A DNA stretch of 64,000 nt from NCBI RefSeq assembly GCF_035084215.1, contig NC_090330.1, positions 58,776,001-58,840,000 on the forward strand, in the 5' to 3' direction. Numbering within the stretch: position 1 is the stretch's first letter; every line of letters starts with the position of its first letter. The DNA comes from Heptranchias perlo (taxonomy: Eukaryota). This document shows, in pieces, positions 12,410 to 54,410 of the stretch. The position numbers were made by a program, and so were the translations under genes. The notes under the pieces were generated by a model that searched no databases, had not been told where the DNA came from, and worked only from the letters and a program-made list of their open reading frames with translations.

Positions 12410-12530
12410 GCTGGTTTTGACACTTCAATAAAAGACATGGACCCCTGTGAAAATTGGGCCTCTGCAGCTTTGACCAACTGGTTAACGCACATTGGAATCC
12501 ATCACATTGCTGACATGCTGAGAAGTGAAG
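12410..12530 (+). CDS. Candidate first coding exon of a long AMOTL1 isoform (ATG at 12437)
   Basis: Lies in unique sequence. Acceptor gtgttgtag|G, strong Kozak gacATGG at 12437, open frame MDPCENWASAALTNWLTHIGIHHIADMLRSE, phase-1 donor GAAG|gtaaat compatible with the downstream phase-1 exons. Confidence 0.55.
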
Positions 12531-12794
12531 GTAAATAAATGTTGAATTCATTATACAAGAATTTTTTTTTAAAACTTGTATCATTTGTAAATTAACAGTT
12601 ATTGCAGAGTTATTGCAGTGTGTGTTAAAATGAAGAAATATTCAAATATTAATATTTTAATGGTTTAAAGTATGGATCATATTAACACTTCAAATAGCTG
12701 TGACTTTTTGTAACACAGTTACGAGAAATAGCTCTTTGCTTTTGCATTTTTATACATTCATGAGTAAATTAGTAAACCCTGTTATTTTAATGTA

Positions 12795-14880
12795 TCATAC
12801 AATATAGCACAGAAGGAGGACATTCAGTCCATTGTGCCTGTGCAGGCTCTTTGGTAGAGCTATCCAATTAGTCCCACTCCCCTGCACTTTGCCCAAAGCC
12901 TATAAATCTTTTCCCTTCAAGTATTAATCCAATTCCCTTTTGAAAATTATTATTGAATTTGCTTCCACTACCCTTTCAGGCAGTGTATTCCAGATCATAA
13001 CAACTCGCTGCGTAGAAAAATGTTTCCTCATGTTGTCTCTGGTTCTTTTGCCAATCATCTTAAATCTGTGTCCTCTGGTTACCGACCCTTCTGCCACTAG
13101 AAACAGTTTCTCCTTATTTACTCAATCAAAACTGTTCATGATTTTGAACACCTCTATCAAATCTCCTCTTAACCTTCTCTGCTCTATGGAGAACAGCCCC
13201 AGTTTCTCCAGTCTCTCCACATAACTGAAGTCCCTCATCCCTGGTACCCTTCTAATGGTCTTCTACACCCTCTCTAAGGTCTTGACATCCTTCCTAAAGT
13301 GTGGTGCCCAGAGTTGAATACAATACTCCAGCTGAGGCCCAACCAGTGTTTTATAAAGGTTCAGCATAACTTCCTTGCTTTTGAACTCTATGCCTCTATT
13401 AACAAAGCCCAGGATCCCATATGCTTTTTTAACAGCCTTCTCAACTAGTCCTGACACCTTCAAAGGTCTCTTTGTTCCTGCACCCCCTTTAAAATTGTAC
13501 CTTTTAGTTTATATTGCCTCTCCTCATTCTTCCTACCAAAATGTATCACTTCACACTTCATTAAATTTCATCTGCCACGTGTCTGCCCATTTCATCAGTC
13601 TGTCTATGTCCTCCTGAAGTCTGTTACTATCCTCCACATTGTTAACTAAATTTCTGAGTTTCATGTCAAACTTTGAAATTATACCCTGTATACCCAAGTC
13701 CAGGTCATTAATATATATCAAAAAGAGCAGTGGTCCTAATCCCGACCCTTGGGAATATCACTGTATACTCCCCTCCAGTCTAAAAAACAACCATTCACCG
13801 CTACTCTCTGCTTTCTGTCCCTTAGCTAATTATCCAGGCAGCCACTGTCCATTTAATCCCATGGGCTTTAATTTTGCTAACAAGTCTATTATGTGGCACT
13901 TTATCAAATGCCTTTTGAAAGTCCATATACACAACATCAACCTTCATCAAAGAACTCAATCAAGTTAGTCAAACACGATTTTTCTTTAACAAATCCGTGC
14001 TAACTTTCATTTATTAGCCCATACTTTTCCAAGTGCCAATTAATTTTGTCCCAGATTATTGTCTCTAAAAATTTCCCTACCACAGACGTTAGGCTGACCA
14101 GCCGGTAATTGCCGGGTTTATACCTCTCACCTTTTTTGAACAGGGGTGTAATATTGGCAAACCTCCCATTGTCTGGCACCACCCCAATATCTAAGAAGGA
14201 TTGCAAGACTGTGGCCAGAGCCACCGCAATTTCTACCTTTCCTTCCCTCAGTAACCTAGGATGCATCCCATCCGGACCGGTTGACTTTTCTATTTTGAGT
14301 ACTGCCGACCTTTTAAGTACCTCCTCTTTATCTATTTTTATCCTTTCTAATATCGCTACTACCTCCTCCTTTACAGCTATATTGGCAGCATCCTCTTCTC
14401 TAGTGAAGACCGATGCAAAGTATTCATTTGGTACCTCAGTCATGCCCTCTGCCTCCACAAGAAGATCTCCATTTTTGTCCCTAAGCAGCCCCACTCTTTC
14501 TTTGACTACTCTTTTAATATTTATATGTTTATAAAAGACTTTTGTGTTCCCTTTTATGTTAGCCGCGAATCTATTCTCATACTCTCTCTTTGCCTCTCTT
14601 ATTCCCTTTTTTAGATCTCCTCTGTACTTTCTGTATTGAGCCTGGTTCTCTACTGTATTATGAACCTTTCATTTGCCATGAGCCTCCTTTTTCTGTTTCA
14701 TTTTAATCTCTATATCTTTAGTCATCCAGGGAGCTCTTGCTTTGGATGCCCTTTGTCCCTCATGGGAATGTGTCTACGTTGTACCCGAACCATCTCCTCC
14801 TTGAAGGCCTCCCATTGTTCAATTACAGTTTTGCCTAACAATTTTTGATTCCAATCCACCAGGGCAACATCACTTTTTCA
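12795..14880 (-). mobile_element. 5'-truncated CR1 LINE
   Basis: Minus ORFs 13263-13463 (PQLEYCIQLWAP) and 14000-14494 (KPGNYRLVSLTSVVGK); same subfamily as 39870-43040. Confidence 0.92.
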
Positions 14881-14987
14881 TGTGTTTTCACACTCCGAGA
14901 TATACAATGTATTACACAAGATGATAACCTCACAACTAGAGTCACTTTTCCTAATTCCTGTAGTGCCATAAAGTTACCAAATTTGGA

Positions 14988-15122
14988 GCTGCTCAATTGG
15001 TAAGTGAACTACCTAGTGCAGATTGAGCCATACAGACCTGAAAGATTCTAGGTTTAACCCACAGCTTGTGCTCAATTAATTGAGTACAGTCTGGGTATCG
15101 GTAGGAGCACTACGATTGGCTG
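14988..15122 (+). mobile_element. AmnSINE2-like SINE head (tail possibly at 16548-16630)
   Basis: gagccatacagacc...ggtttaaccc...gtaggagcactacgattggc, similar to the other copies in the window. Confidence 0.45.
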
Positions 15123-52574: not shown

Positions 52575-53294
52575 TTTAGGGCTGTGCCCATACTGCCCAA
52601 TATCTAACAATACGGTAGAGCAACCAGCTGTGTAACAATAGTATTGCCTTGAGATCTGAACTGGATATTCATGTCTTTCACATGTGCTCCCACTTGTGCA
52701 TTTCTTTTGAAGATGTACCAAGAAAACACTTGGTAAGACAAGGCCAGATATGAATCATTAAGCTGCTTTACTTCATTGACTTACTTAGTTCAATCTGTCT
52801 CCACATAAACAAAATAGCTGATAACTATCCTTCTGTATTTTCTTTCGGATCCTGATGAAAGCTTGCCTTCCCAGCTCTTTTTTTTAATACACCTGGGACT
52901 AGGGACCTCAACACAATGGGTGTGAGGTGTTGAGACAGGCTGACAAATTGCTTATAGTCTTTGGGGAAACAACTTCGAAGCCTAGCTCATTAGTATTTTA
53001 ATCATCTTTTTAAAAACTTGACTGGTTATACTGTGTTTAAAACATACCCCTTAAATGTAACTTTTTTTTCCCCCCCCAATTTCTTTCTGTGAAAAAATAC
53101 TCAAAAATCCCAAAACATAACAAAGGTATTAAAGTGAAAAACTATGCAGCGTGAACCAGAACTTAAAGATGTTATTGAGAAGCTGACGTGAAAGGCCAAT
53201 GTCCATTCAAGGTGCCTCTTTGGTTGAAGATAGTAGGAGAGAAAAACAGATAATTCAAGAAGTAATCGATATTTTGCACTAAGCTTTGGTTTTA

Positions 53295-53706
53295 ACAACA
53301 ACGACAACTTGCATTTATATAGCGCCTTTAACATGGTAAAACCTCCCAAGGCCCTTCACAGGAGCAATTTTCAAACAAAATTTGACATTGAGCCACATAA
53401 GGAGATAGTAGGATAGGTGACCAAAAGCTTGGTCAAAGAGGTAGGTTTTAAGGAGCGTCTTAAAGGAGGAGAGAGGTAGAGAGGCAGAGAGGTGTAGGGA
53501 GGGAATTCCAGAGCTTAGGGCCTAGGCAGCTGAAGGCACGGCTGCCAATGGTGGAGCGATTAAAGTCGGGGATGCTCAAGAGGTAAGAATTGGAGGAGCA
53601 CAGAGACTCCAGAGGGTTGTAAGTCTGGAAGAGATTTCAGAGTTAGGGAGAGGCAAGGCCACAGGGGGATTTGAAAACAAGGATGAAAATTTTAAAATCG
53701 AGGCAT
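53295..53706 (-). mobile_element. L2 LINE 3' fragment
   Basis: Homologous to 30315-30800 and 37164-37852. Confidence 0.85.
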
Positions 53707-54254
53707 TTAAAAAGCCTATAGTTTCAAGGAGGAATGCAAGACAGCTGGAGATAAGCCAATGTGTCTGAACATATAATTAAACTTTTTTTTTAATGTCTTT
53801 ACACTGGAGTGAAGCATCACTAAAATAAAAGATTGTATATATGATGAAGAGTCCTAGATTATGTAGTCTATTGTAGCAGATCTCCTGGCGTGTTGCTCAC
53901 AGGCAGTCCAGGGATCTGGAGTATGATAATGATGTTTAGCTGCTAACCTGGCCTGTCTCTTTAAGGCTACAGCTGTTAATAGGCAAATGTAGGTACTTAT
54001 AAATTGTTAATGTCAATCTGAGGACCATTGTAACTGCATGTAAATTTCAGGCTCCAGGCCAATGACATTCTCTTTTTTTTTTAAAGATTGTTTCACAACT
54101 GTAATGAAATGTGACACATTGAAGTGTGGTGTCTGGTGTGTGACATTTGGAGTGTGATGGATACATGTTAGATGCTAGACTTTTTTATGCATCAAAGCTC
54201 AGTAGATATGTAGACTATGACTGTTACTTGACAACATTTGTTTTTCATTTTCAG

Positions 54255-54410
54255 ATTCTCTAGATGAATACTTCCCAGGTACTCCATTCTGGCTATTAGA
54301 ACAAAGTGGATATCTGTATGAACAGGGATCTTATGGAGAGCATGAATTGTATCACAAAAGGCATGAGCATTTCCCATTAAGTACAGAAGAAATTGATGCA
54401 ACTGAAGAAG
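54255..54410 (+). CDS. AMOTL1: AMOTL1 internal coding exon (equivalent of human exon 2)
   Basis: Acceptor ttttcattttcag|AT and donor GAAG|gtacct; 156 nt, phase 1-1, open frame (D)SLDEYFPGTPFWLLEQSGYLYEQGSYGEHELYHKRHEHFPLSTEEIDATEE(G). Resembles recalled human AMOTL1 YSPSSPVQVLEDSTY...LYSGRHETSALTVE and splices in frame to the 55483 exon. Confidence 0.85.

Follow-up and report, generated by a model that had tools for sequence, protein, structure and literature searches.

Upstream exons of AMOTL1 in Heptranchias perlo likely derive from an ancestral SAM domain that is intact in the paralogue AMOT

Angiomotins (motins) are described as proteins with a disordered N-terminus, a coiled coil and a PDZ tail. 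The accessible part of one review (PMC9916871) lists their features as L/PPxY motifs, an actin site, a coiled coil and a PDZ motif, and that of another traces the family to a single ancestral gene in lancelet (PMC5746249). Here we consider the AMOTL1 gene of Heptranchias perlo, which lies in a window of 64,000 nt (GCF_035084215.1, contig NC_090330.1, positions 58,776,001–58,840,000, forward strand) and in which small exons far upstream of the canonical core encode an N-terminus that is likely derived from a SAM domain. The SAM is a common assembly module, and SAMs form dimers or polymers.

The combination of a SAM with an angiomotin is already present in automatic annotation and apparently undescribed in print. 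Canonical human AMOTL1 has another first exon, and the accessible parts of three reviews (PMC9916871, PMC5485632, PMC5746249) mention neither a SAM nor the upstream exons termed A and B below. The word "sterile" does not occur in the accessible text of PMC5485632; PMC9688111, as far as accessible, mentions AMOT only as a tankyrase partner; and the legend of Fig. 8 in PMC5746249 refers to other domains in red, among which a SAM may be included. Among literature titles and the starts of abstracts, none ascribes a SAM to the angiomotins themselves, and the co-occurrences come mostly from tankyrase papers. The initial annotation, which regarded angiomotins as not described as SAM proteins, was right with respect to these titles and abstract starts, but SAM matches do exist in automatic annotation: UniProt A0A401RVP1, a long AMOT isoform, was automatically named "SAM domain-containing protein". 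It should be noted as a limit on the present findings that both the exons and the AMOT SAM match are already in automatic databases.

Among the closest known relatives of the window protein are the long isoforms of AMOT (XP_067853256.1, XP_072451464.1, XP_064422581.1, XP_058857119.1), which have homologous sequence and the same three phase-1 exons before the same core. The AMOT SAM is complete, whereas the window AMOTL1 scores below threshold, its core residues being replaced and 10 residues inserted. Predicted long AMOTL1 proteins (Carcharodon XP_041055353.1, coelacanth XP_064414000.1, human XP_005273855.1) share orthologous exons and the start codon and stand in RefSeq without a domain name; among 30 full-length AMOTL1 proteins scanned, only two, both from coelacanth, exceed the SAM_2 cut-off (24.0 bits, profile positions 2–44 of 66). 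Canonical human AMOTL1 and the window gene have in common the L/PPxY motifs, actin-binding region, coiled coil and PDZ-binding tail, and human exons 2 (150 nt) and 3 (922 nt; 1072 nt together, according to the accessible part of PMC9916871) correspond to exons C and D of the window. The best solved profile matches to the AMOT N-terminus are the SAMs of CNK2, neurabin-1, SARM1 and aveugle (PDB 3bs5, 2gle, 6qwv, 3bs7). This likeness is generic (E 2e-7 or weaker, the best being 2.3e-7) and uninformative as to partner or polymer, and PDB searches with AMOTL1-only profiles do not reach these or any other SAM.

In our opinion, it is reasonably probable that the N-terminus of shark AMOTL1 is a decayed SAM, that a distal promoter serves the long form, and that helices 1–2 of the former domain act in docking on a flexible acidic arm.

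Exons of the long AMOTL1 isoform

Exon A, 12410..12530, forward strand: a 27-nt in-frame leader, the ATG at 12437 and 94 coding nt, likely homologous to SAM helices 1–2 (splice sites; joint 12530>19468 in run X3; Pfam SAM_2 at E 0.012, below the cut-off; HHalign to AMOT exon A 97.4%).
Micro-exon, 19468..19491, forward strand: 24 nt, phase 1, adding 8 residues between predicted helices 2 and 3 (the intron site most similar to an insert seen in three other sharks; polypyrimidine tract and AG/GT; both joints in X3).
Exon B, 20317..20367, forward strand: 51 nt, phase 1-1, at the position of SAM helices 3–4 and strongly drifted (joint 19491>20317; length and phase as in AMOT exon B; HHalign 49% alone).
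Exon C, 54255..54410, forward strand: 156 nt, phase 1-1, at the position of SAM helix 5 plus a linker, homologue of human exon 2 of 150 nt (covered in all four runs; joint 54410>55483 in X1 and X2; aligns with mammalian exon 2).
Exon D, the AMOTL1 core exon, 55483..56410, forward strand: 928 nt, with the short-form start codon and L/PPxY motifs (joint 56410>60556 in all four runs).
Next AMOTL1 exon, 60556..60823, forward strand: leads into the coiled coil (covered by spliced contigs; frame read).

The gene is the AMOTL1 orthologue rather than AMOT or AMOTL2: its core exon is 100% identical to RefSeq AMOTL1 of Heptranchias perlo, with AMOTL1 matches throughout, and two paralogue loci elsewhere in the genome stand at 66% and 62%. 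The initial annotation had proposed exons at 12437–12530, 20317–20367 and 54255–54410 with GT/AG sites, phase-1 junctions, a strong Kozak context and a frame continuous with the core, all of which was confirmed (G at -3 and at +4; no stop through to 55483–56410). All exon lengths of the long isoform preserve the reading frame. What the three-exon model overlooked is the micro-exon. Three other shark homologues have 8–10 extra residues between exons A and B, and a scan of the intron for such residues gave one clear best site, 19468–19491, with good splice signals. Moreover, exon A opens with an acceptor (12410), and its ATG follows 27 nt later; therefore, exon A is not the first exon, and a further upstream exon exists. 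When the preceding 30 kb were scanned for CpG enrichment, one marginal signal appeared, some 23.5 kb ahead of the window start, and no promoter was located.

Evidence for splicing comes from four runs of one sample (X1–X4), presumed to be RNA, available as contigs and mapped onto two stretches; their GT-AG joints fit spliced RNA. Run X3 contains the GT-AG joints 12530>19468 and 19491>20317 at a depth of 10.8, and a record of 242 nt at the same depth, 143 letters of which lie on 54253–54395. The remaining 99 letters equal 24+24+53 from the joints and depth bins, minus a shared AG. Given this agreement in length and depth, a single X3 contig very likely runs from exon A through the micro-exon and exon B to exon C, the joint 20367>54255 being obtained by arithmetic. 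The junctions anticipated in the initial annotation were borne out in part: the direct joint 12530>20317 is absent from the joints listed for the four runs, its place being taken by the two joints of the micro-exon, and ray and carpet-shark models have the direct form. Exon C is tied to the AMOTL1 core by joint 54410>55483, found in two of the four runs (X1 and X2), together with 56410>60556. These data support the existence of a long spliced AMOTL1 isoform.

The contigs of X1 and X4 that arrive at exon C include 734 and 185 letters from elsewhere, and neither run has depth on exons A and B; therefore, an alternative first exon is also in use. A CpG-enriched region at 32900–33700 of the window matches N-termini that serve as alternatives in models of Heterodontus, Scyliorhinus, Mobula and Chiloscyllium and is likely an internal promoter with an alternative first exon, from which the X1 and X4 contigs may enter exon C. 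The donor of those models, near 33209, reads AT and not GT in the window; candidate donors lie at 33082 and 33409.

A probable SAM origin shared with AMOT

The decisive lead to the origin of these exons was a genome scan, which revealed a SAM_2 match above the cut-off at a distance of 57 kb upstream from the AMOT core exon and in the same orientation. The exon bearing this match has the same start as exon A and a phase-1 donor after codon 29. In the long AMOT isoform, three phase-1 exons (88, 51 and 168 coding nt) precede the same core exon, and their counterparts in the window AMOTL1 measure 94, 51 and 156 nt. Because they match the three AMOT SAM exons in order, length and phase, the AMOTL1 exons likely represent a decayed ancestral SAM. 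The complete AMOT SAM occupies three exons at G000:C15:46172963-46216160. Intron spacing is also similar, which may be coincidence: 7.8 kb in AMOTL1 vs 8.2 kb in AMOT between A and B, and 33.9 vs 34.7 kb between B and C (window 12531–54254 vs G000:C15:46173051-46215992).

Among 22 proteins scanned, 10 AMOT isoforms exceed the SAM cut-off, and seven of these (five shark models, coelacanth and sturgeon) span the whole domain with SAM_1 scores of 38.5–49.8 bits, the best (P0286) covering residues 6–67 at E 4.6e-13. The 12 proteins below the cut-off comprise four from chimaeras, four other fish AMOT, two bird AMOT and two bichir AMOTL1. No SAM was found in the tetrapod AMOT models fetched, which are annotation models and do not prove loss. 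In the Atlas, an angiomotin cluster carries a SAM in 40% of its 112 members. Chimaera AMOT (P0239, P0315) has the three-exon extension with short deletions and lacks a Pfam SAM match, apparently a second, independent SAM decay. AMOT models of three sharks (P0180, P0287, P0303) omit the 51-nt middle exon, which keeps the frame and removes the middle of the domain; this skipping is a possible splice switch. At the AMOTL2-like paralogue (G000:C747:526346-614000), two profiles gave no exon-A homologue within about 87 kb upstream, a weak negative for that stretch alone, and the core exon has only a short leader ahead of its ATG.

Direct comparison of the two N-termini supports common descent. HHalign of fish AMOTL1 against AMOT gave 97.7% with a score of 73 over 115 collinear columns (94.4% with other alignments), and none of 60 column shuffles scored above 18.5. 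For the SAM span alone, the match to the AMOT SAM was 97.9% over 70 columns, with the signal strongest in exon A. Thus, the AMOTL1 N-terminus is likely of SAM origin, shared with AMOT, and we infer that the SAM predates the AMOT/AMOTL1 duplication. The Pfam result for the window itself is weaker: the exon-A peptide alone, as opposed to the joined peptide, scores 16.2 bits on SAM_2 vs a cut-off of 20.5. N-terminal fragments match SAM_2 at E<=1 in nine of 13 cases, and full-length shark and ray AMOTL1 gave no SAM match at that level in any of 12. The SAM-like N-terminus proposed by the initial annotation, with its suggestion of an ancestral module, is therefore upheld as to ancestry, but the window sequence remains below the cut-off and the intact, recognised SAM sits in AMOT.

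Wider searches with AMOTL1 returned little. Its profile, run against 1.84 billion representatives, gave three matches, none of them a SAM or an invertebrate motin: two are pieces of AMOTL1, and the third, a repeat-rich protein, was judged spurious. A word-based search with N-terminal residues 1–56 (P0004) retrieved only the query itself (one of four candidates), and an Atlas search with the AMOTL1 N-terminus gave no usable match. The mammalian AMOTL1 profile matches fish AMOTL1 at 99% and AMOT at only 7%.

An exon-A-type motif occurs near the start of 40 of the 120 listed AMOTL1 proteins (42 by eye), from sharks, rays, coelacanth, caecilians, crocodilians, turtles and mammals. Bichirs, a kiwi and a predicted human isoform have it as well. 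This spread makes the long isoform an old one, and automatic annotation already contains it for other species. A lineage-specific module, the other option considered at the outset, was not borne out, as the same start is found in sharks, rays, coelacanth, bichir, reptiles and mammals. Nor is human exon 2 the sole remnant, as had been suggested: it is homologous to exon C, but the predicted human isoform XP_005273855.1 (985 residues) keeps all three exons. From sharks to mammals the reading frame is preserved, as are the W, WL and G residues. Relative to eight other elasmobranch AMOTL1 proteins, exon A is 84–90% identical in seven and 68% in the eighth, exon B 29–76%, exon C 65–87% and the core 81–92%; within elasmobranchs, conservation of exon A is thus about on a par with that of the core exon, and that of exon B is lower. 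In several AMOTL1 models exon B or C is missing or an exon of 47 residues interrupts the SAM span, and many models begin at the short-form Met.

State of the N-terminus and competing explanations

Several sequence features make it likely that shark AMOTL1 begins with an ancestral SAM that has decayed. An AMOT-SAM profile scores 29 bits on coelacanth AMOTL1, 24–28 on bichirs, mostly 10–15 on sharks and rays and 4–10 on tetrapods. The SAM span of the window protein has 72 residues vs 62 in AMOT, including the 10-residue insertion, contains four prolines vs one, and is almost without basic residues. In the alignment to AMOT, shark AMOTL1 has lost the Gly, Leu-Gly-Val and Arg that are conserved in helices 3–5, and at 20 SAM positions, picked by hand from the SAM consensus, the window protein is hydrophobic at 13 against 16–17 in the comparison. 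This makes a clear gradation of domain decay, intact in AMOT, partial in coelacanth AMOTL1 and a trace in mammals. The accessible part of PMC9916871 reports that human exon-2 skipping keeps the frame and leaves localisation similar, which we count for decay.

In the model that we favour, the common ancestor of AMOT and AMOTL1 would have carried a SAM, of which the AMOTL1 exons at 12410, 19468, 20317 and 54255 would be the decayed copy. A putative distal promoter would yield the long isoform, adding about 125 residues before the short-form start, and internal first exons and the short start would produce forms without the extension. The shark relic most likely no longer adopts the five-helix SAM fold. 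Helices 1–2, encoded by exon A, would still be under selection and the remainder decayed; these two helices probably form a short amphipathic element for docking, carried on a flexible arm that is acidic and contains prolines.

Several observations weigh against this account. Regarding expression, the X3 contig has only 24–26 letters on exon A, under the 31-letter bar, support for the exon-A chain comes from one contig of one sample, and three RefSeq models identical to the window gene begin downstream of exon A. Regarding ancestry, the per-exon HHalign matches to AMOT fall from 97% for A to 49% for B and 1.7% for C (56% for B and C together), and the homology of B and C therefore rests partly on position, length and phase. 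Regarding decay, exon C is still as conserved as noted above and the helix-5 position still has its hydrophobic residues, as would be expected of a divergent but folded domain, and an AMOTL1-named Atlas cluster carries SAM_2 in 15% of its 95 members, so that some AMOTL1 lineages keep a recognisable SAM. Finally, AlphaFold gave for the basking-shark orthologue, from an AMOTL1-only alignment of 24 rows, helices at 8–18 and 23–29, coil and a pTM of 0.18; the AMOT positive control (10 rows) was also non-compact, with a pTM of 0.36 and about 12 Å root-mean-square deviation from solved SAMs. Foldseek returned eight rows for this control, all SAM proteins and none reaching E 0.001. Since the control was not compact, the AMOTL1 model proves nothing, and the case for decay therefore rests on sequence.

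The alternative that survives best, which we nevertheless consider unlikely, is that the N-terminus of shark AMOTL1, though divergent, still folds as a SAM that accommodates the micro-exon in a loop and oligomerises with itself or with the AMOT SAM, in line with the oligomerisation module proposed in the initial annotation. The HHalign match is collinear across the whole SAM span, most N-terminal fragments match SAM_2, exons A and C are conserved, coelacanth AMOTL1 exceeds the cut-off, and the insert sits where exons A and B meet, a point between predicted helices. However, every shark or ray AMOTL1 tested is below the cut-off, core residues of helices 3–5 are replaced, prolines have been gained, exon B is drifting, and some models lack exon B or C or carry the 47-residue exon within the span.

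It is distinctly improbable, in our view, that the SAM relic has no protein function, being a minor 5' variant or acting at the RNA level (alternative promoter, start-codon choice), with the working protein starting at a downstream Met. Such a reading would account for the two of four runs that enter exon C from a different upstream exon without depth on A or B, for the many models starting at the short-form Met, and for a mammalian form minus 86 N-terminal residues reported in the accessible part of PMC9916871. It does not sit well with the residues and frame preserved from sharks to mammals, with an exon A conserved about as well as the core in elasmobranchs, or with exon lengths that are all in frame. 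That the likeness to a SAM arose by chance or convergence, or that the exons belong to another gene, is hardly credible and largely refuted: the shark peptide alone reaches E 0.012 at best and word-based and profile searches with AMOTL1 retrieved no SAM proteins, but a paralogue with a complete SAM shares exon order, lengths and phases, the shuffle control scored far lower, and the exons are connected to AMOTL1 both in spliced contigs and in orthologous models.

A SAM on the ancestor of AMOT and AMOTL1 suggests an older mode of clustering for this YAP/LATS scaffold, which tetrapods seem to have lost or reduced. The decayed-SAM account also offers an explanation of where human AMOTL1 exon 2 and the two upstream exons of the predicted human isoform came from, and it highlights the N-terminal element of AMOTL1 as a candidate functional part. 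With considerable reservation, one might go further and picture the ancestral jawed-vertebrate motin as a SAM-bearing, self-assembling Hippo/YAP scaffold, with the SAM toggled by promoter choice and 51-nt exon skipping; AMOT of sharks, coelacanth and sturgeon would still be of this kind, and long AMOTL1, including the predicted human form, would keep a working SAM-derived docking element.

Elsewhere in the window, introns are rich in reverse-transcriptase-like fragments of long interspersed nuclear elements (4528–7600, 13600–14700, 48800–52500 and 62700–63560), and transposase-like frames lie near 7550–8270 and 21400–24900, both labels being readings of translations.

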